A DNA stretch of 64,000 bases from Clostridia bacterium (GCA_017416185.1 JAFQDF010000037.1:1-64000); one strand, 5' to 3'; counted from the first letter of the stretch, positions 4,209 to 42,839 are shown. Numbers and translations are program-made. Notes: a model not told the origin generated them from the letters alone.

Positions 4209-4825
4209 TAAAGGTATTATTATATGTTTCAGCCGCTTTATGCGCGTATCTTGTGTGCGGTATAAACCCTGCTATACTGATCTCAAAAAGAGTTTATCAT
4301 ACCGATATCCGAACCCTCGGCAGCGGCAATGCGGGCTTTACTAACTTCAAGCGCAGCATCGGCGGTATCTATAGTTGGGTGGTGCTGTTGTTCGATCTTT
4401 CAAAGGCGGCAGTTATAACGGCTATATTTGCAAGGCTATTTGAAATACATATCGGCAGCTATGACCTTGGGGCAATATATACCTGCTTCTTTGCAATGCT
4501 GGGACACTGTTTTCCCTGTTGGTACCGCTTCAAAGGAGGCAAAGGCTTTTTGGTATATATATCGGTAATATGGTTCGTTGACCCGCGTGCGGGAGCCGTA
4601 GCTCTTATTATAATGCTGTTACTGCTTATAACTACCCGTTATATGTCCCTGTCAACCGTTACGGCTATGCTCTCCTGCCCTATTACTCTGGCACTTATAA
4701 ACGCCGAAGCTCGGGTCATCGTCATATGTACACTATGCTCTCTTCTTATGACTGTAAGGCATAAGGATAATTTTGTAAGACTTATCAAGGGTACGGAAAA
4801 AAAGGTATCTCTCATTGATAAATAA
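4205..4825 (+). CDS. plsY: Second PlsY-family glycerol-3-phosphate acyltransferase paralog, translationally coupled to degV
   Basis: GSGNAGFTN motif and multi-TM. Its start overlaps the degV stop (ATGA). Confidence 0.75.
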   Translation: MIKVLLYVSAALCAYLVCGINPAILISKRVYHTDIRTLGSGNAGFTNFKRSIGGIYSWVVLLFDLSKAAVITAIFARLFEIHIGSYDLGAIYTCFFAMLGHCFPCWYRFKGGKGFLVYISVIWFVDPRAGAVALIIMLLLLITTRYMSLSTVTAMLSCPITLALINAEARVIVICTLCSLLMTVRHKDNFVRLIKGTEKKVSLIDK

Positions 4826-4830
4826 CTATA

Positions 4831-4858
4831 AAAGGACTTCCTTTTTCGAAGTCCTTTT
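4831..4858. terminator. Bidirectional intrinsic terminator (AAAGGACTTC...GAAGTCCTTTTT) between plsY-2 (+) and niaR (-)
   Basis: 10-bp stem with T-runs on both sides. Confidence 0.7.
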
Positions 4859-5370
4859 TATATTTCAGGTGCTATATATCCCTTTTCGGTAAGGGCGTTT
4901 TCAATATTATCAAGCGTTTGCCTGCTGTCTGCGGAAACTGTATGGTAGTGATATCCTCCGGTTATATTCATAAGCTCGGTGGATTTTCCGCTTCGTACAC
5001 CCTCCATAAAATTCTCTATGTCTTCTCTTGAGGCAATACTCAGAGGTGCTTCTATACGCCCATATACCTTATGCCATACGTAGACGTTCTCTACCCTGCC
5101 GCCGAAGGATACGATAACGGAAAGCTCATCCTCGGTCTGCTCCTTGGTATGGCGGAGCTTAAAGGTCTTTTTAACAAGCTCACTCACAGGCAAAAGATAT
5201 CCGCTATGGGTGGATCGTATATCATACCCCTCTGCCTTGAGAGCGGAAATATCGCTGACTACGATCTGACGCGAAACACCGAATTTATCGGCTAAAGCCG
5301 TGCCGTTAACAGCAGCTTCGCTTCCTCTCAAAGTGTCGATTATCGCTTTTCTTCTCTCGTCTGCTTTCAT
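4858..5370 (-). CDS. niaR: NiaR/YrxA-like transcriptional regulator (HTH_11 plus 3H domain)
   Basis: 170 aa with an N-terminal HTH (GTALADKFGVSRQIVVSDISAL) and a C-terminal His-rich 3H-like region (GGYHYHTV). Confidence 0.65.
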   Translation of the reverse strand: MKADERRKAIIDTLRGSEAAVNGTALADKFGVSRQIVVSDISALKAEGYDIRSTHSGYLLPVSELVKKTFKLRHTKEQTEDELSVIVSFGGRVENVYVWHKVYGRIEAPLSIASREDIENFMEGVRSGKSTELMNITGGYHYHTVSADSRQTLDNIENALTEKGYIAPEI

Positions 5371-5431
5371 TTCATCACCCCTTGTAATACTTTACCATAT
5401 TACAACGATAAAGTCAAGTGAATATAGGATA

Positions 5432-5460
5432 TTGCAAAATTTTGTCATATATTGTATAAT
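5432..5460 (+). promoter_or_regulatory. Sigma-A promoter (TTGCAA, 17-nt spacer, TATAAT) upstream of the WYL gene pair
   Basis: Hexamers read from the sequence, 60 nt upstream of the start codon. Confidence 0.45.
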
Positions 5461-5519
5461 AAGTACGGTTTTTGGGACAGTTGATTTTTATAATTAAATA
5501 TAACGAAAGGAGAATGGCT

Positions 5520-6770
5520 ATGGCATACAGCGAGCTTATAAAGAATTTTGAGAATATCCGTGATTATATGCGTGAGTTTTACGTTTACGGCTTCAAGAGC
5601 AGAAACGACTATACCGAAAAGAGCTCACGCTCATACGACGATGAGCGTCGGCGTATGGAAAGCTGGCTTGGGGAGCATATGAGCTTCGTACGTACTCCCG
5701 AGGGTAAAAACGTCTTTATATCTATTGACAGCCGTGTCACGGGACACAATCCGCTCTACAAGGCACTCAAGGCTAAAAGCTTTACCGACAAGGATATCAC
5801 CCTGCATTTTATACTTTTTGACCTACTTCATTCTCCCGAGATATCTCTTTCCCTTTCAGAAATAGTTAAGAATATAGACCGCCGTCTGTCCGAATTTGAC
5901 GAGCCTATGATATTTGACGAATCCACCGTCAGAAAAAAGCTGAAGGAATATACAGAGCAAGGACTGATAGTCACAGAAAAGGACGGCAGAAAAATACTAT
6001 ACAGACGCTCCCCTTCCGTTATGCCTATGGGAATAAGCGATGCTCTGCATTTCTTTTCCGAGGCTGCTCCCGTAGGTACAGTCGGCTCATTTCTGCTCGA
6101 CAAGCAGGGAGAGCATAGGGACAATTTCGGTTTTAAGCATCATTATATCACAAGCGCCCTTGACAGTGACGTTACCGCCAAGCTCTTTATGGCAATGCAC
6201 AAAAAGGCTATCGTATCCGTCTCAAATCATTCACGGTTTGCCCCTACCCCCACGATAAAAAGAATAATTCCCCTTCGTATTTTTATGAGTGTTCAGAACG
6301 GCAGACATCATCTGCTGGCATACGAGGCGGAGTATAATTCTATCAAGGCATTCCGTATTGATTATCTGTCTGACATAAAGATAGAGGAAACTACTCCCCG
6401 CTTTGACGAGCTGAGGGCAGCACTTGATACTATACAGACAAAAATGTGGGGAGTTACGGTAAGAAAGGGACTCTCTGTAGATCAAAATACGGAAAGAGTA
6501 GAGTTTACGGTACGCGTAGAGGATGACGAGGAGCATATAATAAGAAGGCTGCTTCGTGAAAAGCGTATAGGCCGTATAGAAAGACTTGATAAAAATAACT
6601 ACCGCTTTACTGCCGATGTTTACGACATAAGCGAAATGATCCCTTGGATACGTACCTTTATCTGCCGTATAACGAGTCTTGATTTTTCAAACAAGGTCCT
6701 TGAAAAGCAATTTCGGTCAGACATAAAAGAAATGTACCGTATCTACGGTATAGAGGAGGCGGAAATATGA
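5520..6770 (+). CDS. WYL-domain protein 1 (putative wHTH, WYL and C-terminal extension domains)
   Basis: The WYL-like core HHLLAYEAEYNSIKAFRIDYLSDIKIEE, a preceding winged-helix-like segment (DESTVRKKLKEYTEQGLIVTEKDGRKILYRR), and an unknown N-terminal ~120 aa. The ATG at 5520 has an AAAGGAG RBS at 7-nt spacing; the ORF-track start at 5472 is TTG. Confidence 0.6.
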   Translation: MAYSELIKNFENIRDYMREFYVYGFKSRNDYTEKSSRSYDDERRRMESWLGEHMSFVRTPEGKNVFISIDSRVTGHNPLYKALKAKSFTDKDITLHFILFDLLHSPEISLSLSEIVKNIDRRLSEFDEPMIFDESTVRKKLKEYTEQGLIVTEKDGRKILYRRSPSVMPMGISDALHFFSEAAPVGTVGSFLLDKQGEHRDNFGFKHHYITSALDSDVTAKLFMAMHKKAIVSVSNHSRFAPTPTIKRIIPLRIFMSVQNGRHHLLAYEAEYNSIKAFRIDYLSDIKIEETTPRFDELRAALDTIQTKMWGVTVRKGLSVDQNTERVEFTVRVEDDEEHIIRRLLREKRIGRIERLDKNNYRFTADVYDISEMIPWIRTFICRITSLDFSNKVLEKQFRSDIKEMYRIYGIEEAEI

Positions 6771-7678
6771 TATTCAATGAAATATATTCTGCATACTTTA
6801 ATGCCGTAGCCGATATTTTAGCAAAACTTACCGAAGGTGATACCGAGGGCTGTGACCTGTCTGCCATAGTATCAGAACACGCCTTCGGAGAAAGCGCTCT
6901 AACCATCCTCCCCGCCCTTAAAAGCGGTAAATGGCAGTTGGTTCATCCCGATATGACCACCCATATTGCACACAGACCTTCAATGCCCCTGACCGATATA
7001 CAGAAAAGATGGCTTAAAGCCATATCCCTTGACCCGAGAATAGCTCTGTTTGATATATACTTTGAGGGCCTTGAGGACACCGAACCGCTGTTCACCGCCG
7101 AGGATTACGTAATATACGATAAATATTCGGACGGAGACCCCTTTACCGATGAAAGGTATATTTCTCATTTTCGTACTATATTGACAGCCCTGAATCAGGG
7201 ACATAATCTGAAGCTGGAAATATTAAACCGGCGTGGTGAGAGGGTCTATATAAGATGTATCCCCGAAAGGCTGGAATATTCAGAAAAGGACGATAAATTC
7301 CGTCTTGTTACAAGCGGATGCGGCTTTGTCCGTGCCGTCAACCTTGCCCGTATACAGAAATGCAAAATATATTACGGTGACGATATCATACGCTCAAAGG
7401 GGGATGAAAGAAAATGCGACACCCTGCGTCTGAAGATAACGGACGAGCGCAACACTCTTGAAAGATGCCTTATGCATTTTGCACATCTTGAAAAGAACGT
7501 TGAGAGGATAAGCGAAAAGGAGTACATACTCAATATGAGCTACGACATGGCCGATACCCCCGAGATGGTAATACGTGTGCTTTCCTTCGGCCCAACCGTT
7601 GAGGTGATATCACCCGAAAGCTTTAAGGAATTAATAAAAAATAAGTTAAAAGATCAAAAAAGATGCGGATTTTTTTAA
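6767..7678 (+). CDS. WYL-domain protein 2, translationally coupled (ATGA overlap) to WYL protein 1
   Basis: WYL-like segment ERVYIRCIPERLEYSEKDDKFRLVTSGCGFVRAVNLARIQKCKIYY. It is 303 aa with no obvious HTH. Confidence 0.55.
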   Translation: MIFNEIYSAYFNAVADILAKLTEGDTEGCDLSAIVSEHAFGESALTILPALKSGKWQLVHPDMTTHIAHRPSMPLTDIQKRWLKAISLDPRIALFDIYFEGLEDTEPLFTAEDYVIYDKYSDGDPFTDERYISHFRTILTALNQGHNLKLEILNRRGERVYIRCIPERLEYSEKDDKFRLVTSGCGFVRAVNLARIQKCKIYYGDDIIRSKGDERKCDTLRLKITDERNTLERCLMHFAHLEKNVERISEKEYILNMSYDMADTPEMVIRVLSFGPTVEVISPESFKELIKNKLKDQKRCGFF

Positions 7679-7695
7679 GTTCGCATCTTTTTTTC
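7661..7695 (+). terminator. Intrinsic terminator (AGATGCG...CGCATCT plus a T7 run) overlapping the stop codon of WYL protein 2
   Basis: 7-bp stem with a large loop containing the TAA stop, followed by TTTTTTT. Confidence 0.5.
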
Positions 7696-7787
7696 CGTGA
7701 AAAAAACGGTATAACTTAGTAAAATATACTTGCAAGCCGATAAAGTCAGGTATATGAAATTACTACGGTACATAAGGCTATGCCGAA

Positions 7788-7895
7788 ATGTATGCCGTAT
7801 GCTTGCGGCAAATTTGATTGAGTCTTGAAAACTCATAGCAAATTTTAAGGACCTTTCAGGTCCATCTATCGCAGGTTCGAATCCTGCCGTATGTT
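7788..7895 (+). ncRNA. tRNA-like element. It has a canonical T-arm (GCAGG-TTCGAAT-CCTGC), an upstream stem-loop (GGACC-TTTCA-GGTCC), an anticodon-like hairpin (TGAGT-CTTGAAA-ACTCA) and a weak 7-bp acceptor-like pairing (ATGTATG/CGTATGT). This is a non-canonical cloverleaf, possibly a Y-RNA-like or tRNA-mimic RNA, or a tRNA remnant.
   Basis: Folded by hand. The GGTTCGAATCC T-loop lies on the + strand in a 470-nt gap free of plausible CDS between the WYL genes and the SPFH/rtcB pair. There are three G-U pairs in the acceptor, no D-arm and a 13-nt insertion, so it is not a standard tRNA. Confidence 0.3.
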
Positions 7896-8149
7896 GTGAA
7901 ACATATCGCCGGTGGATTGGTATTTTGATGTCGTGCAAAAAAGCACTCTACCCTGATGCAATTACTCTGCCGAAATAAGGTTTACCTTGTCTAAGCAATA
8001 TGTAAATGGCCTTGTCCGAAAACGGATACCGTTGTTCAAATATAAAAGCCAAAATTATTTCCGTTTTTATATGCGTCTGCTTAAGTTTTTGGCCGTCATA
8101 AGCATATGAGTAATTGCAAACGTATATTAACCGTAAAGGAGTATATATA

Positions 8150-9253
8150 ATGATAAAAAAAGTGATAATTAATGAAAATCAAAGAGGGTTTCTCTTCAAG
8201 AACGGAAAATACGTAAAGATGCTTTGTCCCGGTAAGTATTATACAAACGGTACAAAGGAAATAGAAATATCAAATTTAGATATGCCCGTAGATCCTCACA
8301 GATGCTCTGTCGATACACTATTAACCGACAAAGCAGTCGCAGATTCCGTATGCTTAGTAGATGTCGGAGATGAGCAGGTTGCGCTCCATTTCGTCAACGG
8401 AAAATTCAAATCCGCACTTACTCACGGAAAGTATATGTTCTGGTCCGTACAGGATAAACACGAATATAAGATGATAGATATATCTATCACAGAAGCCGAC
8501 GAAAGCGTTCCCGAATACATTTTTTCTATGATCCCCTCAACACTCTATGTAAAAATAGAGGTAGAGGAGTATCATAAAGCATTGCTTTACTTCAATCAAA
8601 GATTTGTAAAGGTTTTAGATGCAGGTACATACTTTTACTGGAGAAATTCTGTCAAAATAAGCGTAAAACACATCGACACCAGACTTACTCAAATGGATAT
8701 TACGGGACAGGAAATACTTACGCAGGACAAAGTTTCACTTCGTATCAATATGATCTGTAACTACCGAGTAACCGATTACGTAAAAATATTTACCGAAATT
8801 GACGATTTTACCGAGCAACTGCATATAATGGCTCAGCTCGCGTTACGTGAATACGTAGGCAAGCACAAGCTGGACGATATCCTTGAAAAGAAAGACGAAA
8901 TGTCCGAATTTGTTTTTAATAAATTAAAAGCAAAGGAAAGTGAATTGTTCGTTAATATTGCAAATGCCGACGTTAAGGATATAATTCTTCCCGGCGAGAT
9001 CAGAGCGATAATGAATACTGTGCTTATCGCAGAAAAACGCGCTCAGGCAAATGTTATAACCCGCCGCGAGGAAGTAGCATCCACAAGATCCCTTTTGAAT
9101 ACGGCTAAGCTTATGGATGAAAACAGTACCTTATATAAGCTTAAAGAGCTTGAATACGTAGAACGCATCTGTGAAAACATCGGTAATATCAATCTCAACG
9201 GTAACACCGACGTACTGTCCCAGCTTACAGGTATCCTGAGAGGCGGTGCTTAA
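8150..9253 (+). CDS. SPFH/band-7 (stomatin/prohibitin/flotillin/HflKC) domain protein with a duplicated N-terminal SPFH-start motif
   Basis: Core match to SPFH: VNIANADVKDIILPGEIRAIMNTVLIAEKRAQANVITRREEVASTRSLLNTAKLMDEN. Two SPFH-start-like segments are present (VIINENQRGFLFKNGKYVKMLCPGKYY and VEEYHKALLYFNQRFVKVLDAGTYFYW). The ATG at 8150 has an AAGGAG RBS. Confidence 0.7.
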   Translation: MIKKVIINENQRGFLFKNGKYVKMLCPGKYYTNGTKEIEISNLDMPVDPHRCSVDTLLTDKAVADSVCLVDVGDEQVALHFVNGKFKSALTHGKYMFWSVQDKHEYKMIDISITEADESVPEYIFSMIPSTLYVKIEVEEYHKALLYFNQRFVKVLDAGTYFYWRNSVKISVKHIDTRLTQMDITGQEILTQDKVSLRINMICNYRVTDYVKIFTEIDDFTEQLHIMAQLALREYVGKHKLDDILEKKDEMSEFVFNKLKAKESELFVNIANADVKDIILPGEIRAIMNTVLIAEKRAQANVITRREEVASTRSLLNTAKLMDENSTLYKLKELEYVERICENIGNINLNGNTDVLSQLTGILRGGA

Positions 9254-9260
9254 CAATAAA

Positions 9261-10466
9261 ATGATAGAGATAAAAGGAAATTTTAATACCGCCCTCTGCT
9301 TTACAGACAGTGTGGAGGGCTTGGCATACGAGCAGATCAAAACGGTCTGCGATATAGAGGCGTTTGCCGATAATAAGATAAGAATAATGCCCGACGTTCA
9401 CGCAGGTGTGGGCTGTACCATAGGTACGACGATGACTCTTACCGACAAGGTAGTTCCCAATATGGTAGGCGTGGATATCGGCTGCGGTATGTATACCGTA
9501 GAGCTCGGAAAGATCGATATTGACCTTGAAGCATTTGATACCGCCGTTCATACTATTCCCTGCGGCAAGGCTGTATGGGAGGGCAGAAAGGAGCGCTTTG
9601 ACCTTGAGGAGCTGCGCTGCTTCCGTGCGCTTAAGGATTCAAAAAGACTGGAAAGAAGTATCGGAACCCTTGGAGGCGGAAACCACTTTATAGAGATAGA
9701 TAAGGACGAAGATGGCAACAAGTACCTCGTTATCCATTCCGGAAGCCGTAACCTCGGCACTCAGGTGGCGGAGTACTATCAGTCTATTGCCGTTGATCTT
9801 AATATGGGCAAGGAGGAGTACTTTGACCGCCGTGAGGAGATAATCCGCACCTACAAAGCTGAGGGCAGACGCTCTGAAATTCAGGATGTCTTGAAGGCTA
9901 TGGCAAAGGAGTGGAAGGATAAGGAGCCTACACTTCCCCGCGGACTCTGCTATCTCTACGGCAGATTTATGGAGGATTATATCCACGATATAGACATCTG
10001 TCAGCGCTTTGCTACCCGCAACCGTGAGAAGATGGCAGAGATAATTCTTGAGCTGACTGGAATAGCGGCGGCACATTCCTTCCATACGATACACAATTAT
10101 ATCGACGTTGAGGCTATGATACTCCGTAAGGGCTCTGTGTCTGCAAAGGCAGGCGAGAAGCTCCTTATCCCCATCAATATGCGTGACGGCAGCCTTATCT
10201 GTATCGGCAAGGGAAACTCTGACTGGAATTTTTCCGCACCCCACGGTGCAGGCAGACTTATGAGCCGTACCGATGCCTTTGAGAAGCTGACTATGGCAGA
10301 GTATGAGGCGCAGATGTCAGGTATCTACTCCACCTGTATCAACACCTTTACTCTTGACGAGTCACCTATGGCATACAAGTCTATGGAGCATATAGTATCC
10401 AACATCACTCCCACCGCCGATATAGTTACACATATAAAGCCTATATACAATTTCAAGGCAAATTAA
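9261..10466 (+). CDS. rtcB: RtcB-family RNA 3'-phosphate/5'-OH ligase (short ~400-aa form)
   Basis: Motifs MPDVHAGVGCTIG, GGGNHFIEI and NFSAPHGAGR (the GMP-histidine motif). An alternative GTG start at 9246 would overlap the SPFH gene by 8 nt. Confidence 0.8.
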   Translation: MIEIKGNFNTALCFTDSVEGLAYEQIKTVCDIEAFADNKIRIMPDVHAGVGCTIGTTMTLTDKVVPNMVGVDIGCGMYTVELGKIDIDLEAFDTAVHTIPCGKAVWEGRKERFDLEELRCFRALKDSKRLERSIGTLGGGNHFIEIDKDEDGNKYLVIHSGSRNLGTQVAEYYQSIAVDLNMGKEEYFDRREEIIRTYKAEGRRSEIQDVLKAMAKEWKDKEPTLPRGLCYLYGRFMEDYIHDIDICQRFATRNREKMAEIILELTGIAAAHSFHTIHNYIDVEAMILRKGSVSAKAGEKLLIPINMRDGSLICIGKGNSDWNFSAPHGAGRLMSRTDAFEKLTMAEYEAQMSGIYSTCINTFTLDESPMAYKSMEHIVSNITPTADIVTHIKPIYNFKAN

Positions 10467-10488
10467 GGGGCAAGTTGCCCCACCCATA

Positions 10489-10524
10489 CTGCGCCCATTT
10501 GTGCAGTAATACAAATCACACGCC
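10489..10524. repeat. Copy A of a ~36-bp intergenic hairpin motif (CTGCGCC-ATTTGT-GCAGTAAT-ACAAAT-CACACGCC)
   Basis: It shares the TTTG-loop(CAGT)-CAAATCACACG core with copies at 27440-27475 and 53983-54020. Confidence 0.5.
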
Positions 10525-10545
10525 ACAAGGCAATTATCTATATAT

Positions 10546-10585
10546 AAAAAGCTTCGGATCAAACCGAAGCTTCTTTTGTTTTTTT
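10546..10585 (+). terminator. Intrinsic terminator for rtcB (AAGCTTCGG...CCGAAGCTT plus CTTTTGTTTTTTT). The stem overlaps the 3' end of the convergent MATE gene.
   Basis: 9-bp stem with a long T-run. Confidence 0.7.
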
Positions 10586-11908
10586 CATTACCGTAATATA
10601 CATTATAAATCCCATTACAAGGGTCAGGGTGTCGGCTATGGGCTGGGCGCTCATAAGCCCCGTCTCGCCGCCAAAATTCTTAAGTATTATAAGTAAGGGT
10701 ATAAGCAGAACAAGCTGTCTTACCATAGAGAGCAGAAGTGACTGGAACCATCTGCCCATAGACTGGAATATTGCGCCGAAGAGGTTAGTGAAGCACATAC
10801 CCGGCACGCATAAGAACCATATACGTATAAAGTCTATTCCCTTCTCAACAGTCTGTGTCTCGGAGGTAAATATGTGAAGTATAGGCTCGGCAAATATCTC
10901 TGCCAACGCTATACAGAGTCCTGCGTAGATGGCAAGTATTATAAAGGAAAGACTGCTTACAGACTTGAATCTCTTAAGGTTTCCCGCACCGTAGCAGTAA
11001 CCTAACAGAGGCATTATACCCTGTGTGAGACCAACGGTTATCTGTATTCCCACAGAGCCTATCTTCTGTACCGTTCCCTGTGCGGCGATAGATATATCAC
11101 CGTAGGATGACATACTGTTAGTAAGAAGGATGTTGGCTACAGTACCCAGGATTATAACAGCAGCGGCGGGAATTCCTACAAGGATGACCGAGCTTGCAAT
11201 ATTCTTATCAAATCTGAATTTCAGAGGATTAAGAACTATTACGCTGTCCTTTGTTCTGAGGGCTACCGTAAGAAGATAACCGAAGGATATAAGGTTGGAT
11301 ATAAAGGTAGCTATTCCCGCGCCGCCTATTCCCATACCTAACACGGAAACGAAGAGTCCGTCAAGAACTATATTCAACACTCCGCCGAGCGCAACGCCTA
11401 TACTTGCCTGCTTGGTATTTCCTTCAGAACGGATAAGATGCGCCAGCACCATAGAGCCTACCGTGGGTATTCCGCCTATCGTAAAGGTCCAGAAAAGATA
11501 GCTTTGGGTGTGTGCAAGAGTAGACTCGGTAACTGCTCCTGCCATACGGAAAATGGGTAGGTTAAATACGTTTAATATAAGTATCAAAAGCCCCACGGCA
11601 ATAAAGGAACCGTAAAAGCCGAAGGTAGAGGCAAGACGGGCATTGTCCGGCTTCTTTTCACCCAGAGAACGGGAAATAAAGCTGTTGGCGCCGATACCGA
11701 AAAGGTTTGCCACCATAGTAAGGCACATAAATATGGGGAAGCTTACCGTCAAGGCTGCAATCTGTGAGGGATCGTTGGTATGTCCCACAAAGAAGGCATC
11801 GGCAAGGTTATATATAAGTACCACAAGCTGACTCAGAACCGTGGGTATGGCTAACTTTGCCACTGCCCTCGGTACCGTCATATTTTCAAAAACGTCTTTA
11901 TTGTTCAT
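10559..11908 (-). CDS. MATE-family efflux transporter
   Basis: 449 aa with 12 predicted TM helices and the MATE N-terminus (VPRAVAKLAIPTVLSQLVVLIYNLADAFFVGH). Confidence 0.85.
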   Translation of the reverse strand: MNNKDVFENMTVPRAVAKLAIPTVLSQLVVLIYNLADAFFVGHTNDPSQIAALTVSFPIFMCLTMVANLFGIGANSFISRSLGEKKPDNARLASTFGFYGSFIAVGLLILILNVFNLPIFRMAGAVTESTLAHTQSYLFWTFTIGGIPTVGSMVLAHLIRSEGNTKQASIGVALGGVLNIVLDGLFVSVLGMGIGGAGIATFISNLISFGYLLTVALRTKDSVIVLNPLKFRFDKNIASSVILVGIPAAAVIILGTVANILLTNSMSSYGDISIAAQGTVQKIGSVGIQITVGLTQGIMPLLGYCYGAGNLKRFKSVSSLSFIILAIYAGLCIALAEIFAEPILHIFTSETQTVEKGIDFIRIWFLCVPGMCFTNLFGAIFQSMGRWFQSLLLSMVRQLVLLIPLLIILKNFGGETGLMSAQPIADTLTLVMGFIMYITVMKKTKEASV

Positions 11909-12874: not shown

Positions 12875-12922
12875 AGGAGCAAGCTGCCCCACATATAATA
12901 AAAATTCCCCAACAATAAGCTT

Positions 12923-12953
12923 AAAGGAGTTGCTTCAACTAAGCAACTCCTTT
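12923..12953. terminator. Bidirectional terminator (AAAGGAGTTGCTT-CAACT-AAGCAACTCCTTT)
   Basis: 13-bp stem between convergent genes. Confidence 0.7.
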
Positions 12954-12957
12954 AATA

Positions 12958-14121
12958 TTACAGTTTCTTTTTTACGAAAATAAATGCAATAACTGCTATT
13001 GCAGCTACGCCTATTGCAATACCTACGCCGATATCTCCGGTCTGAGCTGCATTATCTCCCGTTATTCCCCCGGTAACAGCTTTCTTGGTTGTACTTGAGG
13101 TCTTTGAGGCTGTCTTTTGAGTGGTAAGCTTGCTCCCCGTTTGGGTGGTAACAGGGTGTGTCCCTGATTCTGTTTCTGTAGATTTTTCGCTCTCCTTTGT
13201 GTCGATAGTAGTATCAACAGCTCCTGTTGCTATGGTCGTCTCATCCGTTTCAACAGGTTCGGTTACTTCTCCGTTTGCACCAAAGCTGAGCGTTATACCG
13301 TATGCCTTAAGGCATACGCCTGATGACAAATATCCTTTGAGCCCGTCTGCAAGAATATATCCGCAGGTTGCAAAACGCTGGAAGGTGGCAACTTCACCTG
13401 CTTCGGGATCAATAAACCTATCCATATATATTGCCATAGCTCTGTGCTTGGCGCCGCCTGAACAAAGCTCTTCAGTAGTCACACTAATGTCACCGAAGGA
13501 CAGTTCATCTGTATCCTGACATATAAATTCCCAAGGGATAAAAGCCTCAAAGCACCATCCATCATTCGTTACCTGCCCTTTAACCTTAACGTCTGATGTA
13601 ATGTCGCCGCTTCGATTATGGGCACGGTACATACGGCAGATATTATTCTCAAATATACCTACCGAATACCAGGTATTATAATCGGTGTTTGACATATACC
13701 CCTCCTCAAGAAATCTTCCGAGGGGATCTATAACAAAGGTAAAGATATCTCCGTTATATCCGTAAACCACCTCATTTTTAATATTGAAATCGTTCTGTAC
13801 GTTGTCTATATCGTCCTCGCCGGTAGACAGCACAAAACTATTGTCAAGGATGTCAGCGGCATAGTATATACCGTCCTTATCGTATGCATAATATAGATAA
13901 AATGACTGAAGTATCTCGTTGCAGTTACCGAAGGTAGCCATAAGATCCTTGTGGGCATATACGCCTTCACTCCAACCCTCATCCGCTGCTATACTTCCAT
14001 CTATTAAAGGCGTCGACATAGGAACATCGATATTACCGACGTCTGCCTGCATGTTCGGGTTTGCATAGACTGTTGTTGAAAGACAGACAAGTAAAAGTAA
14101 TATACAAATCAATCTTCTCAT
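12958..14121 (-). CDS. Paralog A of a tandem secreted/anchored protein family, the divergent member. It has a signal peptide, an aromatic-rich beta-sandwich-like domain, a Ser/Thr-rich linker and a C-terminal TM anchor ending KKKL.
   Basis: Signal peptide MRRLICILLLLVCLSTTVYA. It shares motifs with paralogs B-D (YYAADILD, GYNGDIFTFVIDPLG, GDITSDVKVKG, GWCFEAFIPWEFI). Its start overlaps the stop of paralog B (ATGA). Confidence 0.7.
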   Translation of the reverse strand: MRRLICILLLLVCLSTTVYANPNMQADVGNIDVPMSTPLIDGSIAADEGWSEGVYAHKDLMATFGNCNEILQSFYLYYAYDKDGIYYAADILDNSFVLSTGEDDIDNVQNDFNIKNEVVYGYNGDIFTFVIDPLGRFLEEGYMSNTDYNTWYSVGIFENNICRMYRAHNRSGDITSDVKVKGQVTNDGWCFEAFIPWEFICQDTDELSFGDISVTTEELCSGGAKHRAMAIYMDRFIDPEAGEVATFQRFATCGYILADGLKGYLSSGVCLKAYGITLSFGANGEVTEPVETDETTIATGAVDTTIDTKESEKSTETESGTHPVTTQTGSKLTTQKTASKTSSTTKKAVTGGITGDNAAQTGDIGVGIAIGVAAIAVIAFIFVKKKL

Positions 14122-15356
14122 TTTCTTTTCTTTGCTCCCTTATATACGATTCCCGATACCGCAAGCGATCCTATAGCTGCAGCGATTCCTATATCAAAGG
14201 TCTGTGCCGCATTGCCACCCGCAGCGGTACCTGTAGTAGCCTTCTTGGTGGTAGCCTTAGCTGTAGCCTTACTTGTAACCTTAACTGTAACCTTCTGCGT
14301 AACCTTGTTACCGGAAGCATCAGTTACTGCATTACCCTTGTCATCGGTAACCTCAACAAAAGCTGTTTCGGTTTCCTCAGTGACAGTATCACTGCCGCTG
14401 TCAGTAGCAGGAGCATCGGTAGTAGCTGTACTATCTGATGCTGTAGTGTCTTCACCTACCTGATCCTTTGCCTCAAGATAAAGGTTAAGCCCAAGAGATT
14501 TGACGTTTGTACCTGTACCCATATGACCGGGAGTTCCGTCCGCCATAGTTGAGGGAACGGTAACAAAGCATCCCCAGGTTGCAACCTCACCTGCCTCGGG
14601 ATCGTTGAAGCGGTCGTGATACATAGCACCTGCTCTGACCAGTGATTTATCGGAAAGAAGCTCTGCTTTGTCTATGACACAGTCACCGTATGAAATATTC
14701 TCTATATCTTCAATAATCATATCCCAAGGTATACCTGCTTCAAGGCACCAGCCTGTAGCGGTCTTGTGTCCTGCCACCTTTACCTTGTCAGTAATATCGC
14801 CTGCATTTACCTTTTCGCGGTACATCCTGGCTACATCTCCTTCAAAAAGACCTACCATATACCAAGGAGAGTTATCTTCATTACCGGTAAACCCATTATT
14901 CGCCAATATTCCTGCGGGATCTATAAGCATACCGAAAACGTCGCCGTTATATCCGAACGCAGAACCGTCATCCTTTATGTCAATATCATCGGTACCTGAA
15001 GAATACACAAATTCGTTTGTACCTGCGGGAATAACCTCGCCGGTTATCTCATGTACTGACTCAAGACCGTCGGTAAGATCGGCGGCATAATAGAAATATT
15101 CGTCGTCATAAGCAAATTTAACCGTACCCTTAAACGTAAGAGGATTTACGTGCCAGAAGAAACCGAGGGTATCGTAATCCATACTTGCTGCAACAGACCA
15201 GCCTTCCGTTTCGGTTATATTGCCGTCAACGGTAGGAGAAACCTTCGGCGTATCTATGGGACCGTTCTCAATAACGCCCTCGGGCCCTGCCATAATCTGT
15301 ACCGACATAATTGATATCATCAATAATGCCAATAATACTGTAATGATCTTTTTCAT
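14118..15356 (-). CDS. Paralog B of the tandem surface-protein family
   Basis: Signal peptide MKKIITVLLALLMISIMSVQIMA, with a GGAG RBS; the ORF-track start is further upstream. The conserved domain is followed by the C-terminal tail TGTAAGGNAAQTFDIGIAAAIGSLAVSGIVYKGAKKRK. Confidence 0.75.
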   Translation of the reverse strand: MKKIITVLLALLMISIMSVQIMAGPEGVIENGPIDTPKVSPTVDGNITETEGWSVAASMDYDTLGFFWHVNPLTFKGTVKFAYDDEYFYYAADLTDGLESVHEITGEVIPAGTNEFVYSSGTDDIDIKDDGSAFGYNGDVFGMLIDPAGILANNGFTGNEDNSPWYMVGLFEGDVARMYREKVNAGDITDKVKVAGHKTATGWCLEAGIPWDMIIEDIENISYGDCVIDKAELLSDKSLVRAGAMYHDRFNDPEAGEVATWGCFVTVPSTMADGTPGHMGTGTNVKSLGLNLYLEAKDQVGEDTTASDSTATTDAPATDSGSDTVTEETETAFVEVTDDKGNAVTDASGNKVTQKVTVKVTSKATAKATTKKATTGTAAGGNAAQTFDIGIAAAIGSLAVSGIVYKGAKKRK

Positions 15357-15387
15357 AGCATTACTCCTAAAATTATTTTCTATAGAT

Positions 15388-15416
15388 ATTATAACATCTG
15401 TTCTTAAATAAATCAA
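15388..15416 (-). promoter_or_regulatory. Sigma-A promoter for paralog B (TTGATT, 17-nt spacer, TGnTATAAT extended -10)
   Basis: Read on the minus strand as TTGATTTATTTAAGAACAGATGTTATAAT. Confidence 0.5.
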
Positions 15417-15449
15417 GCCTTTCGACCACAGTCGAAAGGCTCCATTAAC

Positions 15450-15477
15450 TTTGCACTTTGCATTTTGCACTTTGCAC
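15450..15477. repeat. Short tandem repeat (TTTGCAC)n-like, TTGCACTTTGCATTTTGCACTTTGCACT, next to a palindromic hairpin at 15415-15440
   Basis: Read directly from the sequence. Confidence 0.6.
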
Positions 15478-15487
15478 TACATAAAAC

Positions 15488-15507
15488 AAAGCACTCCGAG
15501 GAGTGCT
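15488..15507 (-). terminator. Intrinsic terminator for paralog C (AAGCACTCC-GAGGAGTGCTT plus a T-run on the minus strand)
   Basis: 9-bp stem, with TTTGTTTTAT following on the minus strand. Confidence 0.7.
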
Positions 15508-15519
15508 TGTTTCATGTAA

Positions 15520-16767
15520 TTACTTTCTCTTCTTTGTAGCTACAAAGCCGATACCGGAGGTTGCAAGAGCACCGAGTGCTACTGCTATGCCAATATCAAA
15601 TGTCTGAGCAGCGTTACCGCCTGTAGTGGTACCTGTGGTAGCTTTCTTAGTAGTGGCCTTAGCTGTAGCTTTAGTTGTAGCCTTACTTGTAACCTTAACT
15701 GTAACCTTCTGGGTAACCTTGTTACCGGAAGCGTCAGTTACTACGTTACCCTTGTCATCAGTAACCTCAACAAATGCTGTCTCGGTTTCTGCAGAAGTAT
15801 TGTCATCACCACCGGGAGTTGCTGTAGTTGTATCATCAGGTGTTGCGGTGGTATCATCAGCCTCAGGACCCTTGAGAGTGTTGGAAATGTTAAGGGTAAT
15901 ACCGCAGGACTGTACAACGTCACCCTTACCCATATGACCGGCAGTACCGTCAAGCTGAGTGGTGGGAACGGTTATATAACGTCCCCAAGTAGCAACCTCG
16001 CCTGCCTCAGGATCGTCAAAACGGTCTTGATACATACCTGCACATTTGTACTGTGCACCATCAGCTATAAGCTCTTCCTTTGTAAGTACAACGTCACCGT
16101 AAGAGATATCCTCGATATCCTTGATGATTATTTCCCAAGGAATCATCGCTTCAAATTCCCAACCGTCAGAGGTCTTCTTGCCGGCTACCTTAACCTGATC
16201 AGTAATATCACCTACACTTACCTTCTGTCTGTACATCTTAGCCTGATCGCCTTCAAAAAGACCTACAAGATACCAAGGAGTATAGTCATTGTTGAAGCCG
16301 GCTGAAAGTAAACCACCCAAAGGATCAAGAAGAAGACCAAATACGTCTCCGTCATAACCGTAATGGGATGTAGGATCTGCTGAATCAACATCGATCCAGT
16401 CTTCGCCCGTAGAATAAACGAAATAGTTGGTGTCAATAACCTCTTCACCGGTGAGCTCATTTACTGCATGGAGATTCTCTTTAATCTTACCTGCAAAGTA
16501 GAAGCCTGTTTCATCTACCGCAAAAAGTATGTTTCCGTCAGAGGTAAGGGGATTCTGTTTCCAGAAATATCCACATGTCTCTGCGTTCATTAGAGCAGCA
16601 GTAGACCAACCCTCATTATTGGTAACAGATCCGTCAACAGTAGGAGTACCGGTAGGAACGGTAATGGGGGGATTTTCAACAACACCGTGGGGACCTGCTG
16701 TAACTGTCATTGCAAAACTCATTGCAAGAACAAGCACACATGCAATGATTGCACTAATTTTTCTCAT
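15520..16767 (-). CDS. Paralog C of the tandem surface-protein family
   Basis: Signal peptide MRKISAIIACVLVLAMSFAMTVTA with an AGGAGG RBS. C-terminal tail GGNAAQTFDIGIAVALGALATSGIGFVATKKRK. Confidence 0.75.
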   Translation of the reverse strand: MRKISAIIACVLVLAMSFAMTVTAGPHGVVENPPITVPTGTPTVDGSVTNNEGWSTAALMNAETCGYFWKQNPLTSDGNILFAVDETGFYFAGKIKENLHAVNELTGEEVIDTNYFVYSTGEDWIDVDSADPTSHYGYDGDVFGLLLDPLGGLLSAGFNNDYTPWYLVGLFEGDQAKMYRQKVSVGDITDQVKVAGKKTSDGWEFEAMIPWEIIIKDIEDISYGDVVLTKEELIADGAQYKCAGMYQDRFDDPEAGEVATWGRYITVPTTQLDGTAGHMGKGDVVQSCGITLNISNTLKGPEADDTTATPDDTTTATPGGDDNTSAETETAFVEVTDDKGNVVTDASGNKVTQKVTVKVTSKATTKATAKATTKKATTGTTTGGNAAQTFDIGIAVALGALATSGIGFVATKKRK

Positions 16768-16798
16768 AATATATTCCTCCTGAATTGTATATATGGTT

Positions 16799-16827
16799 AT
16801 TATAACATATGATTTTAAATTAATCAA
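16799..16827 (-). promoter_or_regulatory. Sigma-A promoter for paralog C (TTGATT, 17-nt spacer, TGnTATAAT)
   Basis: Minus strand TTGATTAATTTAAAATCATATGTTATAAT, nearly the same architecture as the paralog B promoter. Confidence 0.5.
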
Positions 16828-16917
16828 TAGTAATTTTTACATATTAGAAAAAATACTTTAAGAAAGTAGATCAATCTTTTTCTTTAATCAATAGCTTGTA
16901 TACATTTTTCGCATAAA

Positions 16918-16941
16918 AAGATGACCCTTTCGGGTCATCTT
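16918..16941 (-). terminator. Intrinsic terminator for paralog D (AAGATGACCC-TTTCGG-GTCATCTT)
   Basis: 9-bp stem, with CTTTTTATG following on the minus strand. Confidence 0.65.
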
Positions 16942-16949
16942 AATTTATA

Positions 16950-18212
16950 TTACTTTCTCTTCTTTGTAGCTACAAAGCCGATACCGGAGGTAGCAAGTGC
17001 ACCGAGTGCTATTGCAATACCAATATCAAATGTCTGAGCAGCGTTACCGCCTGTAGTGGTACCTGTAGTAGCCTTCTTGGTGGTAGCCTTAGCTGTAGCT
17101 TTACTTGTAGCCTTACTTGTAACCTTAACTGTAACCTTCTGTGTAACCTTGTTACCGGAAGCATCAGTTACTGCATTACCCTTGTCATCGGTAACCTCAA
17201 CAAATGCTGTCTCGGTTTCTGCAGAGGTGTTGTCATCACCGTCGGGAGTTGCTGTGGTTGTATCTTGGCCGCCCTCGTCACCGTTTGGAGCTGTAGTATC
17301 CTGGCCGCCCTCGGGAGCCTGGAGATAGAGGTTGATACCGCAGGAAAGAACGTTGTCACCGGAGGAACCATTACCGGACATACCAGTAGCAAGAGTGGTA
17401 GGACAGGTTACGAAACGGCCCCAAGTAGATCTCTCACCCGCCTCGGGATCGTCAAAACGGTCATGGTACATAGCGCCGAGTCTGATATACGCGTTTTCCT
17501 TAAGGAGGTCAGCCTTGTCTATAACACATTCGCCGAAAGTGATATCCTCAACGTCCTTGATGATGATATCCCACGGAATAGCTGCCTCGAAGTGCCAACC
17601 GTCTGTGGTCTTATGACCTGCAACCTTGACCTGATCGGTAATTTCGCCTTCGTTGATCTTGTTTCTGTACATCTTAGCAACGTCACCCTCAAAAAGACCT
17701 ATGAGATACCAGGGAGTGTAGTCCTGGTTACCGTTATATCCTGCGTCAAGCATTACGGACAGGGGGTCAATGATGATACCGAAAATATCACCGTCAAAAC
17801 CATAGTTATCAGCAGGATTATCAGGGTTAACGTCGATCCAGTCCTCACCCTCAGAATAAAGGAACTGGTTATAGCCTGCGGGGATAAGTTCGCCTGTGAT
17901 CTCGTGGTGTGTTTCAAGACCGTCAACGATCTTACCACAGTAGTAGAGATTGTCGTTATCCCAAGCAAATCTTACGTTACCGTCCATAGTAAGGGGATTA
18001 ACGTGCCAGTAGAAGCCGAGAGTATCATAGTTCATAAGAGCAGAAACAGACCAACCCTCGTTTTCATTGATAGTACCGTCAATGGTGGGAGACATAGCAG
18101 GTACGTTGATGGGGGGATTTTCAATAATTCCCTCAGCGCTTGCCATAACGTTTACCGCCATTGAAGACACGAGAATAAGTAATGTTGCAACGATTGCAAT
18201 GAATTTCTTCAT
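16950..18212 (-). CDS. Paralog D of the tandem surface-protein family
   Basis: Signal peptide MKKFIAIVATLLILVSSMAVNVMASA with an AGGAGG RBS. Its C-terminal tail is identical in type to paralog C. Confidence 0.75.
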   Translation of the reverse strand: MKKFIAIVATLLILVSSMAVNVMASAEGIIENPPINVPAMSPTIDGTINENEGWSVSALMNYDTLGFYWHVNPLTMDGNVRFAWDNDNLYYCGKIVDGLETHHEITGELIPAGYNQFLYSEGEDWIDVNPDNPADNYGFDGDIFGIIIDPLSVMLDAGYNGNQDYTPWYLIGLFEGDVAKMYRNKINEGEITDQVKVAGHKTTDGWHFEAAIPWDIIIKDVEDITFGECVIDKADLLKENAYIRLGAMYHDRFDDPEAGERSTWGRFVTCPTTLATGMSGNGSSGDNVLSCGINLYLQAPEGGQDTTAPNGDEGGQDTTTATPDGDDNTSAETETAFVEVTDDKGNAVTDASGNKVTQKVTVKVTSKATSKATAKATTKKATTGTTTGGNAAQTFDIGIAIALGALATSGIGFVATKKRK

Positions 18213-18245
18213 AACGAAATTCCTCCTAATAAAATAACTATCGGC

Positions 18246-18274
18246 ATTATAACATAGAATATGGCAAATTTCAA
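18246..18274 (-). promoter_or_regulatory. Sigma-A promoter for paralog D (TTGAAA, 17-nt spacer, TGnTATAAT)
   Basis: Minus strand TTGAAATTTGCCATATTCTATGTTATAAT. Confidence 0.45.
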
Positions 18275-18532
18275 GTAGAAAACTATTAAAATGACAAAAT
18301 AATTATGTACACAAAATTAATTTTTTAGTTGAATTGCCTTTCTATATATTATTACAGTTAAGAGGGATAAATTACTACAGCATAACAGTAATTTGTATTA
18401 AATTAAATATAGATATTTGTTCCGAAAAACAAATATCCCCCTTGATCTCGAATTTCGTATTGTTCAGATACAATATCAATCCTATCGAGAGTGATGAGTT
18501 TAGAGTGTAGAGTTTAGAGTTATAACTAAAAA

Positions 18533-40670: not shown

Positions 40671-42839
40671 ATGAAAGGTATTAAAAGAATCACAGCCATA
40701 GGATTGTGTATACTGTTCCTTATTCTGTCTATTCCGGTTATGGGTCTCGCAGGTTACAACGATCCGGATTCCGTATTCGGTAATCTGTTCAGCTTTGTAT
40801 CAACAGTTGCGGAAACAGGATATTCCGTTGACCGTGACGGAAATAACAGCTATCTGTATTTTGACGGAGAAAAGGTTACCGATATAGGTATGCACTTCGA
40901 CGGTACGGACTATTATTACGTCTTAACCGATTCCACCCTTGCCTGTGGAGAAAAAATTTATGCATACAATAACAACGGTCTGCTTGACAAGGCATACTAC
41001 TACTTTGAAGATGACTGTAAAATGAGGAAAGACGGTTGGCTTGAGCTGGACGAGGGTACTCTCCACTACGAGAACGGTATTATTTCTCAGGGTCTTACCA
41101 AGATAGACGATGATTTCTATTTCTTTGAGCTTAACCGAGGTTATCTCTTAAAGGACCGGGATATATTCGTAAATGACGACAATAAGTATAATGTAAAGCC
41201 CGGAACCTATAGCTTTGATGCACAGGGCAAAATGACAGGCGAGGCAGTAATATTACCCGACCTCGGAAAGGGCGCCACCGCTACCGGTATAGTAATGTAC
41301 AATACCTTCTCGGACGATATGATGTTCCAGAGAGATCAGAGCCTGTCGGTATGGGGACTGGCGGATGCATCAAGCGGCAAGGTCATTGTAGAGTTTGCGG
41401 GTCAGACAGCTGAGGCTACGGTCAATGCCGACCGCACATGGAAGGCGACCTTTGACAATACCTTCCCCTACAGTACCACACCAAGGGATATGACCATCCA
41501 CGGTGCGGATGCAGATGTAGTTCTGAAGGATGTGCTTATAGGTGACGTATATTACGTTATCGGTCAGTCAAATGTTTTCTACGATATGCAGGTACAGATC
41601 AACGATCTTGCTGTCAACGGCGGAAGCATGAGCTATGATTTTGACGACAGCCGTAACCTTCGTTTCTACCGTAATTCGGCTCTTTATACCGCAGGTCTTA
41701 CCGGTATTCTTGCCCAGGGTACTACCACCGAGTTCGTTGATGCTGTGGTAGATTACAACTGGATGACCCCCTCCGATGTTGAAGAAAACCTTTCAAGCTC
41801 TGCAAATCAGGATAATACCCACCGTGCTTTTTCCGCACTGGGATATCTTTTGGCATATAATCTTTCAAACAAAACGGACGTGCCCATCGGTATCATTGAG
41901 ATCGATGCAGCAGGTATGCCCCTGACCGCCTTTGCTCCCAACAGCCTTGCAGATAAATGGGGAGACGATACGATGGATCCCGCAACAGGCATCTATACCT
42001 ACAACCTCAGACAAGGTATGGCACAGCCCACAATGAAATCCAGATTTGTATACAATCAGCTTATCAATCCCTTAAAGGGCTTTTCCACTGCCGGTGTTGT
42101 ATGGTATCAGGGAGAGTCCGACCTTCTGAACCATATCGGATTATGGGGCGAGGACCACAAGACCTTTGCATACCAGTTCACCGAGCTTATGACCTATTAC
42201 CGTAACAATTTCGGTGACGGCAGCTATGATTTTCCTGTTTATATGATAGAGATCCCTGCCTGCTTCTCCAACAGCGGACAGAACGCATATCTCACAATGG
42301 GCGGTGTAAGAAGCGACCAGGGTGTGATAAGTAAGTTGCTGGATAATTTCCATCTTGTATCCTCCGCAGATTTCTTCTCAAATATAACCTGGCCAAACTC
42401 CCTGCACCCTTACATAAAGCATCTCCAGGCACAGCGCCTTGCAAATATTGTAGCCGCAGACAGATATAATGTAAGTAATATGGCGGCAGTTCAGGGTCCC
42501 TACTTCGATTCTGCTTCCTACGGAGCAAATACCGTGACGGTAAGCTTTTCAAATGTCGGAAGCGGTCTTAAGGTATACGAAAACGGCAAGCTGTACGGCT
42601 TTGAGGTATGTACAGGCAAAGATGCAAACGGCTTCCTTGTCTGGGAATATGCCGAAGGTGCTGCAGTCAGCGGTACAAATACTGTAACCGTAACTCATTC
42701 AAAGAGCTTTAACGGTGTAAGATATCACGCACAGGACGAGGCATACTATCCCGGTATTCCCGGATTTGACACATTCTGCGCAACTCTTGCAGGTGGTAAC
42801 GGCATACCCGCAACAGCATTTGTTGATATGAAGGATTAA
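40671..42839 (+). CDS. Secreted protein with N-terminal cell-wall-binding-like repeats and a sialate O-acetylesterase (SASA/DUF303, SGNH-like) domain
   Basis: Signal peptide MKGIKRITAIGLCILFLILSIPVMGLAG. Aromatic-rich repeats (YYYVLTD, YYYFEDD, FYFFELN). Esterase motifs VYYVIGQSNV and VVWYQGESD. Confidence 0.55.
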   Translation: MKGIKRITAIGLCILFLILSIPVMGLAGYNDPDSVFGNLFSFVSTVAETGYSVDRDGNNSYLYFDGEKVTDIGMHFDGTDYYYVLTDSTLACGEKIYAYNNNGLLDKAYYYFEDDCKMRKDGWLELDEGTLHYENGIISQGLTKIDDDFYFFELNRGYLLKDRDIFVNDDNKYNVKPGTYSFDAQGKMTGEAVILPDLGKGATATGIVMYNTFSDDMMFQRDQSLSVWGLADASSGKVIVEFAGQTAEATVNADRTWKATFDNTFPYSTTPRDMTIHGADADVVLKDVLIGDVYYVIGQSNVFYDMQVQINDLAVNGGSMSYDFDDSRNLRFYRNSALYTAGLTGILAQGTTTEFVDAVVDYNWMTPSDVEENLSSSANQDNTHRAFSALGYLLAYNLSNKTDVPIGIIEIDAAGMPLTAFAPNSLADKWGDDTMDPATGIYTYNLRQGMAQPTMKSRFVYNQLINPLKGFSTAGVVWYQGESDLLNHIGLWGEDHKTFAYQFTELMTYYRNNFGDGSYDFPVYMIEIPACFSNSGQNAYLTMGGVRSDQGVISKLLDNFHLVSSADFFSNITWPNSLHPYIKHLQAQRLANIVAADRYNVSNMAAVQGPYFDSASYGANTVTVSFSNVGSGLKVYENGKLYGFEVCTGKDANGFLVWEYAEGAAVSGTNTVTVTHSKSFNGVRYHAQDEAYYPGIPGFDTFCATLAGGNGIPATAFVDMKD

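Follow-up and report, generated by a model that had tools for sequence, protein, structure and literature searches.

How are four adjacent, related secreted proteins held at the surface of a bacterium, and what might they bind there? The question is raised by an array of four consecutive minus-strand paralogs, in the order D, C, B, A, that open reading frame (ORF) and gene calls place at positions 12958-18274 of a 64,000-nucleotide stretch of DNA from a Clostridia bacterium (GCA_017416185.1, JAFQDF010000037.1:1-64000), which we analysed at its full length and refer to as the window. All four proteins share a layout comprising a Sec signal peptide, a domain of ~270 residues, a Thr/Asp/Lys-rich linker and a C-terminal tail, and the alignment and gene calls thus agree with an initial annotation of this DNA that had described four secreted paralogs with signal peptides. 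In the corresponding metagenome-assembled genome (MAG; locus tags IJA55_) the array proteins are annotated as 'hypothetical protein', with paralog D identical to the entry IJA55_09185 (NCBI). We find that the array probably specifies an uncharacterised family of anchored proteins that bind glycans, and that the signal they carry is a variant, so far uncatalogued, of a known kind. The genes, the fold, the conservation of the motif, the modularity of the tail, gene conversion within the array, and the promoter and terminator matches are all directly established by the analyses described below. We put at slightly better than even, roughly 55%, the proposal that the D-C-B-A locus is a conserved array of Sec-exported CBM9-fold glycan binders held at the surface by a tripartite signal, and that this signal is a diverged clostridial sortase-type cell-wall sorting signal of the 'xPxTG-D' kind, in which Pro has been replaced by Ala and Gly mostly by Phe.

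The C-terminal tail and the proteins that carry it

The tails of the array read GG(N/D)AAQT(F/G)D, followed by ~20 hydrophobic residues and then KKRK or KKKL. They are encoded on the minus strand at 16953-17060 in D (where the tail is TTTGGNAAQTFD-IGIAIALGALATSGIGFVAT-KKRK), 15523-15630 in C, 14121-14228 in B and 12961-13068 in A, and each of these signal-peptide proteins therefore ends in a tripartite C-terminus made up of a short motif, a hydrophobic segment and a basic cluster. The motif is AAQTF in B, C and D and AAQTG in A, which has AAQTGD where its orthologues read AAQTFD. Across 84 distinct tails the Q, T and D of QTxD are invariant, and the consensus is TGGNAAQT[F/L]D[I/M]G[I/V]AxAxGxLAxSGIG....KKRK. 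Over the 13 residues GGNAAQTFDIGIA, paralogs B and D differ at 10 synonymous positions and show 0 replacements, indicating that the motif is kept by selection at the protein level and not only by homogenisation of the DNA.

A profile of the tail alone, used to search 1.84 billion representatives, gave 40 matches at E-values up to 0.001, all of which lie at the very C-terminus apart from that in P0109, an internal repeat. The proteins retrieved have canonical CBM9_1 domains (AAQTSD, AAQTFD, APQTFD) or F5/8-type-C domains (APQTFD, AAQTSD), or are cohesin proteins (APQTAD, IPQTGD) or very small secreted proteins (APQTFD), and across these passengers the motif forms the series [AILT][PAV][QK]T[G/F/S/A]D. 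At three loci the tail is found on the products of neighbouring genes with different domains: APQTFD, APQTFD and APKTFD at L083, APQTAD and AVQTGD at L082, and AAQTSD, SPATAD and AAQTGD at L091. The occurrence of the motif tail on unrelated, neighbouring passengers indicates that it behaves as a sorting signal. Homologues accordingly carry more than a generic transmembrane anchor, with QTxD conserved family-wide, and the earlier view of the tail as a conserved, family-independent module resembling a sorting signal is borne out. The Gly-Gly that had been taken as its conserved core, in contrast, is lost on other passengers while [AP][QK]TxD is retained.

Two further searches with the tail yielded little: a broad tail profile returned 12 short fragments only from a word-indexed protein database, and a scan of JGI metagenomes returned 3 short contigs only. 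In P0101, a metagenome protein of 147 residues, the conserved linker and tail follow an N-terminus that is unrelated and of low complexity, which probably reflects a frameshift or a chimera in the gene call. At L091, a 152-kb human gut contig, positions 4592-11122 hold a cohesin-dockerin cluster beside GH95 and GH172 genes; CBM9-like and cohesin proteins of this cluster have motif tails, and one cohesin has a plain transmembrane tail that lacks the motif.

The signals to which these tails bear the closest comparison are those of Clostridioides difficile SrtB. This species has a single sortase, seven of whose eight predicted substrates read [SP]PxTGD or NVQTGD (SPKTGD, PPKTGD, SPQTGD, NVQTGD), and cleavage increased by a factor of two or more once the two residues that natively follow the G were included (PMC4155245). 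Like these signals, the array tails consist of a motif, a hydrophobic segment and a basic tail at the extreme C-terminus, have a residue other than Leu at the first position, and place an Asp two residues after the Thr, ahead of the hydrophobic segment. An LPXTG-type pentapeptide (Pro at position 2, Thr at 4, Gly at 5) does not occur in the tails of the window, and the combination of Pro and Gly is seen only among relatives of the tail; the variants AVQTGD, SPQT.D and IPQTGD among these relatives are a further point of likeness to SrtB signals. The array tails differ from SrtB signals in having Ala for Pro, Phe (elsewhere also Leu, Ser, Ala or Val) for the Gly after Thr, and a far more conserved hydrophobic segment.

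Several further results connect the tail to sortase signals. The cohesin protein P0131 (IPQTGD), which was retrieved by the tail profile, passes PF00746 at 22 bits against a threshold of 20, and TPQTGG is the ending of a Ruminococcaceae protein that lies further out in the domain family. An hhalign comparison of a broad set of tails with the C. difficile signals placed T and D in register at a probability of 88% (E 3e-6). We also scanned the window tails alone against NCBIfam and Pfam at E-values up to 10, and the only NCBIfam sortase-signal models that were weakly matched were Rumino_NPXTG and LPXTG_anchor, which have the same tripartite layout as the array tails; the scores were far below threshold for all four. 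In ~0.8 Mb of DNA from the clade, the motif is present in all secreted proteins whose C-terminus is tripartite, and a canonical LPXTG in none of them. Sortase-anchored cohesin proteins are the norm in Ruminococcus (PMC11557425), and cohesin proteins bear the array's type of tail just as the Ruminococcus scaffoldin ScaE bears a sortase signal. It is the smooth series leading to IPQTGD, the shared register with SrtB signals and the weak matches to Rumino_NPXTG and LPXTG_anchor that lead us to read the tail as sortase-type. The statement in the initial annotation that the tail has no LPXTG is thus literally true but hides a likely ancestry among sortase signals.

Proposed anchoring by a sortase-type signal and the alternatives

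If the tail is of sortase type, the surface signal would consist of [A/S][A/P]QT[F/G/L]D, a hydrophobic helix of ~20 residues and then KKRK. The helix and basic tail would hold the exported protein in the membrane until a transpeptidase cut after the Thr and attached it to peptidoglycan. A stalk across the wall would be formed by the Thr/Lys-rich linker, beta-hairpin included. The binding domains have diverged, presumably to cover different glycans. Cleavage by a sortase and linkage to the wall are steps that we infer. A bolder proposal, which we hold only tentatively, is that [A/P][Q/K]T-x-D, helix and KKRK together make up a distinct signal of uncultured gut Oscillospiraceae-like Clostridia, handled by a transpeptidase of its own, whether from a sortase subclass or of another type, and constituting their main or only route of covalent anchoring. 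Such an enzyme might, again tentatively, be keyed on the Thr and the Asp two residues on, tolerate the bulky Phe after the scissile bond, and perhaps read the conserved glycine-rich helix; its substrates would be CBM9-like glycan binders and cohesin scaffoldins that now carry the labels 'TM-anchored' (transmembrane-anchored) or 'hypothetical'.

A number of observations weigh against the sortase-type reading. None of the window tails reaches the threshold of a sorting-signal model in the NCBIfam and Pfam scans: scores against LPXTG_anchor (TIGR01167) are 9.6-10.2 bits where 15.9 are needed, those against Rumino_NPXTG (NF033846) are 13.6 for A, 10.2 for C and 10.0 for D against a threshold of 23.5, with no match for B, and PF00746 gives no match to any of the four. 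The hhalign probability falls to 14% when this family's tails alone (set A1) are aligned with the C. difficile signals. The hydrophobic segment is unusually conserved (GIAVALGALATSGIG, with a small-xxx-small pattern), which is atypical for sortase signals; possible reasons are that helices recognise one another in the membrane or, more simply, that conversion has kept the segment alike. We know of no sortase that accepts Phe after the scissile Thr. With regard to the binding function, both the ligand and a CBM9-type aromatic sugar clamp are putative. Finally, no sortase was found in the 64-kb window, in the 20 kb that flank it on the left or in related loci totalling ~1.1 Mb; all ORFs of the window and of 93 loci were searched for TLxTC-type motifs and by phmmer with S. 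aureus SrtA and SrtB, although these regions amount to a few percent of each genome and the result therefore carries little weight. The contexts of six other tail-bearing proteins likewise include no adjacent sortase or exosortase-like gene.

Some of these points would be expected if the tail were instead a permanent, uncleaved C-terminal anchor, making the array products type-I membrane proteins on a stalk and leaving QTxD and the helix to serve insertion, oligomerisation or contact with a partner. A 20-residue helix with a conserved small-residue pattern followed by KKRK fits such an anchor, as do the lack of a sortase in the window, left flank and related loci searched and the presence of Phe in place of the Gly that sortases normally need. 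There are also precedents, in that some ruminococcal cohesin proteins are classed as anchored by a C-terminal transmembrane segment (PMC13463774) and the cohesin with the plain tail at L091 lacks the motif. We nevertheless consider a permanent anchor rather unlikely, because it leaves unexplained why Q-T-x-D, which lies outside the helix, is invariant on unrelated passengers, why the motif grades smoothly into IPQTGD in a protein that passes an LPXTG model, and why 10 synonymous changes and 0 replacements have accumulated over the motif.

It appears less probable still that the tail is a signal for an enzyme other than a sortase, such as an exosortase, archaeosortase, rhombosortase or other intramembrane protease acting on a Firmicutes CTERM class, which is the comparison the initial annotation had drawn. 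The tripartite architecture and a conserved helix suited to intramembrane recognition are compatible with this idea, Gly-Gly precedes the motif in most of this family, and the tail of A matches the PEF-CTERM model, albeit below threshold (11.5 bits versus 23) and alone among the four. That match is the best of its kind, however, with PEP-CTERM, GlyGly-CTERM and Firmicu-CTERM models giving none at E-values up to 10. Gly-Gly is absent from other passengers on which [AP][QK]TxD persists, the motif aligns with and grades into sortase signals, and Pfam families of exosortase, archaeosortase or rhombosortase type do not appear among the neighbours listed at the inspected loci. The initial annotation was thus right about the fold of the binding module, the tail's resemblance to a sorting signal and gene conversion, but it probably named the wrong family of enzyme, the motif's relatives being sortase signals.

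Two observations concern surface anchoring in this organism more generally. On the same contig, ~9.5 kb to the left of window position 1 (L093 20163-20636), a gene begins whose secreted product of 1347 aa faintly matches FctA and DUF7601; FctA proteins, which contain a pilin-like isopeptide domain, are usual sortase substrates. Within the window, positions 60498-63944 (minus strand) encode a protein of 1148 aa with LamG-like, metallophosphoesterase and three SLH domains and a high codon adaptation index (CAI) of 0.60, indicating that the genome also anchors surface proteins through SLH domains.

The CBM9-like domain and its distribution

The domain that the tail would display occupies residues ~30-300 of paralog D (17313-18125) and is encoded at 15886-16689 in C, 14469-15281 in B and 13285-14031 in A, all on the minus strand. 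The aromatic motifs attributed to it earlier (FAYD..YYAADL, GYNGD.FG..IDP, PWY.VGLFEGD.A.MYR and GW.FEA.IPW) are all present in the alignment. Against Pfam PF06452 (CBM9_1), D scores 22.6 bits and B 22.1 bits, just under the gathering threshold of 23.4, and C and A give no match to this model; several close homologues and enzyme-fused paralogs exceed the threshold. A profile built from 54 family members matched the CBM9 of Thermotoga maritima Xyn10A in the PDB (E 5.7e-5), and an AlphaFold2 model in which per-residue confidence (pLDDT) is >90 across residues 30-300 has the CBM9 beta-sandwich fold. The suggestion of a CBM9- or DOMON-like domain is therefore supported by the near-threshold Pfam match, the PDB profile match and the fold. 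The array proteins are probably stand-alone CBM9-fold glycan binders of an uncultured gut Clostridia/Oscillospiraceae lineage, with a putative ligand.

The array domain departs from CBM9 of the known type in several respects. It is ~270 residues long compared with 189 for CBM9 (PF06452; T. maritima Xyn10A CBM9-2, PDB 1i82), and thus contains insertions, and the two share only 18-19% identity. In the array it lies at the N-terminus of small anchored proteins that have no other globular module, and the enzymes with which modules of this type are partnered are GH18/EndoS-like and SASA proteins rather than xylanases. These partners suggest that the ligand may be a glycan from the host or from microbes rather than the end of a xylan or cellulose chain.

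Might the domain instead be a DOMON-type redox or haem-binding module? The residues that are invariant in the family are Asp, Glu, Gly, Trp, Tyr and Arg, a set that favours a calcium- and sugar-binding module; an invariant Met, His or Lys that could act as a haem ligand is not among them, and the module is fused to GH18 and carbohydrate esterase domains. We therefore regard a haem-binding DOMON domain as highly improbable and rejected it as a candidate.

In a scan of one genome per species across 185,579 species, the domain was present in 11 MAGs of uncultured Clostridia, Eubacteriales or Oscillospiraceae, which come from goat or buffalo caecum, rumen and faeces and mostly have 5-8 loci per genome. 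There it also forms the N-terminal part of proteins with GH18/EndoS-like (in proteins of ~900-1700 aa), SASA (sialate-O-acetylesterase-like), DUF4838 and SLH modules. The GH18 and SASA partners point to glycan foraging and support a role for the domain as an appended glycan-binding module. The window also encodes a SASA-type carbohydrate esterase (40671-42839, plus strand) and a GH63/MGH1-like hydrolase (57909-60464, plus strand), which fit a glycan-foraging lifestyle.

Among 100 homologues, 94 have the tail and 6 have SLH domains in its place, a replacement that, together with the signal peptides, supports a surface location. The exchange can be seen within single arrays: in two Oscillospiraceae MAGs an SLH paralog lies immediately upstream of two QTxD-tailed paralogs (L011 1894-6127 and L012 6920-11155), and SLH and tail anchoring thus interchange in one array in each. 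Paralogs of the domain in this respect resemble SLH-anchored surface proteins. The four proteins of the window, unlike SLH proteins and scaffoldins, lack both SLH and cohesin modules.

Evolution, expression and significance of the array

The array lies directly downstream of rpsM-rpsK-rpsD-rpoA-rplQ, at the end of the ribosomal gene cluster, and is followed by genes for DUF6483, nitroreductase and MatE proteins. All on the minus strand, D spans 16950-18212 (420 aa: signal peptide, CBM9-like domain, linker and QTFD tail), C spans 15520-16767 (415 aa), B spans 14118-15356 (412 aa) and A spans 12958-14121 (387 aa, with a tail that reads AAQTGD...KKKL). The true start of B is MKKIITV rather than an upstream GTG, and its ATG at 15356 is downstream of its own promoter. 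The proposed coupling of A to B is reflected in the ATGA shared by the B stop and the A start; A has no promoter of its own, and the same overlap is present in L006, L008 and L010. The entire D-C-B-A array is also found in other species (L006, L008, L004). In pairwise comparisons B, C and D are 59-66% identical to one another in amino-acid sequence and ~41% identical to A. Plus-strand ORFs opposite the genes, including one of 299 aa antisense to D (17265-18164) and shorter ones facing the linkers of B, C and D, look like antisense artefacts, and nothing indicates that they are real genes.

Against this background of divergence the linkers of B, C and D stand out. In a sliding-window comparison a tract of ~150-162 nucleotides is 90-98% identical among the three paralogs, compared with 50-75% elsewhere. 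The tract lies on the minus strand at 17058-17219 in D, where it encodes ETETAFVEVTDDKGNAVTDASGNKVTQKVTVKVTSKAT...TTG, at 15628-15789 in C and at 14226-14375 in B, where it is one 12-nucleotide repeat unit shorter. Between C and D, 93% identity extends over 300 nucleotides to the stop codon (15519-15818 and 16949-17248). The near-identical linker tract of the initial annotation is thus real, and more than 90% identical, but longer than the ~110 nucleotides given there. It contains 12-nucleotide tandem repeats (in D at 17083-17150) that encode four-residue xKxT units and vary in copy number between paralogs, offering a substrate for misalignment; in the structural model the linker contains a beta-hairpin at residues 333-363, with moderate confidence (pLDDT ~70-83).

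Comparison across genomes bears on how the tract became uniform. Domain DNA is 78-87% identical between the same orthologue in different genomes and 61-71% identical between paralog groups, whereas the linker DNA of B, C and D in the window is 90-96% identical mutually and 69-88% identical to its own orthologues. In L008 it is the tail that groups by genome, and tails can be genome-specific: L008 has the variant FDMGIAIAVGAL, and tails in L011 share the sequence STQTLDITIAVALG. Domains that group by orthologue and linkers that group by genome form an incongruence that is the signature of repeated conversion; to judge from these alignments, the DNA encoding linker and tail has been repeatedly homogenised among the paralogs by gene conversion, as had been proposed for the linker. 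Recent duplication or strong purifying selection might also make linkers alike, and the linker peptide (..KGN.VTD.SGNKVTQKVTVK..) is indeed conserved across species at the protein level. Recent duplication is excluded by the grouping of domains by orthologue, which shows that D, C, B and A had separated into lineages before the species did. Selection fares little better, as it is only inside a single genome that the tract is nearly identical at synonymous sites, its identity with orthologues being 69-88%, and the B tail, identical in protein to that of D over the 13-residue stretch compared above, differs from it at 10 synonymous positions, such that the DNA is not frozen by selection alone. 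We therefore consider either of these explanations very unlikely.

The three promoters of the array are the best sigma-70-type matches in the region, with 10-11 of 12 consensus positions and an extended -10 element (TG-n-TATAAT). They lie on the minus strand, 30-40 nucleotides 5' of the ribosome-binding sites of D, C and B: that of D at 18246-18274 (TTGAAA-17-TGTTATAAT; 11 of 12 matches plus TG), that of C at 16799-16827 (TTGATT-17-TGTTATAAT) and that of the B-A operon at 15388-15416 (TTGATT-17-TGTTATAAT). When the upstream regions are aligned, the only parts in common are the -35 box, the ATGTTATAAT box and the AGGAG(G/T)AAT ribosome-binding site, and the flanks are unalignable, which argues for three consensus-like promoters rather than duplicated DNA. 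Three strong individual promoters are therefore present where they had been placed, but to call them cloned is an overstatement. Terminator-like hairpins, each followed by T-rich sequence, are found on the minus strand after D (16918-16941; called as a plus-strand site, with TTTTTAT following the stem on the coding strand), after C (15489-15508) and after A (12921-12955; 15-bp stem). The earlier statement that the paralogs with promoters have their own terminators is thus supported.

The spacers of the array contain further elements. At 15415-15478, between the C terminator and the B promoter, the minus strand has 4.4 copies of the 7-nucleotide unit GCAAAGT, and after them a second hairpin (15415-15442, minus strand) with a 12-bp stem whose 3' arm runs into the -35 box of B; together these may constitute an element that controls regulation or read-through. 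Tandem repeats of 7/14 nucleotides (18488-18521) also lie directly 3' of the rplQ terminator, in the ~290-nucleotide AT-rich spacer that precedes the D promoter. An Rfam scan of the window found nothing. Elsewhere in the window, two adjacent proteins with weak WYL and WCX matches (5472-7678, plus strand) form a possible pair of transcription regulators that is seemingly unrelated to the array.

Codon usage provides an indication of expression level. With the window's ribosomal genes as the reference (mean 0.74), CAI values are 0.71 for D, 0.64 for C, 0.50 for B and 0.42 for A, and only one of 38 other genes (pfk, 0.70) comes close to D. The steady fall along the array suggests graded expression. 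D and C, judged by their strong promoters and ribosomal-like codon bias, are probably abundant proteins.

If the tail proves to be a working sortase-type signal in which Phe stands in for Gly, the known substrate range of protein-anchoring transpeptidases, which include the sortases that protein engineers employ, would widen. With a simple profile of such a signal it would also be possible to re-annotate surface proteins of uncultured gut Clostridia that are currently annotated as 'hypothetical' or 'TM-anchored', and this would take in the cohesin proteins of cellulosome- or amylosome-like systems. The array itself is a clear example of mosaic evolution, in which the binding domains diverge while the anchor that follows them is homogenised. 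No other surface module seen in the sampled related genomes is as expanded as the CBM9-like family, and its attachment to GH18/EndoS-like and sialate-esterase-like enzymes suggests that it probably marks how these bacteria hold gut glycans.

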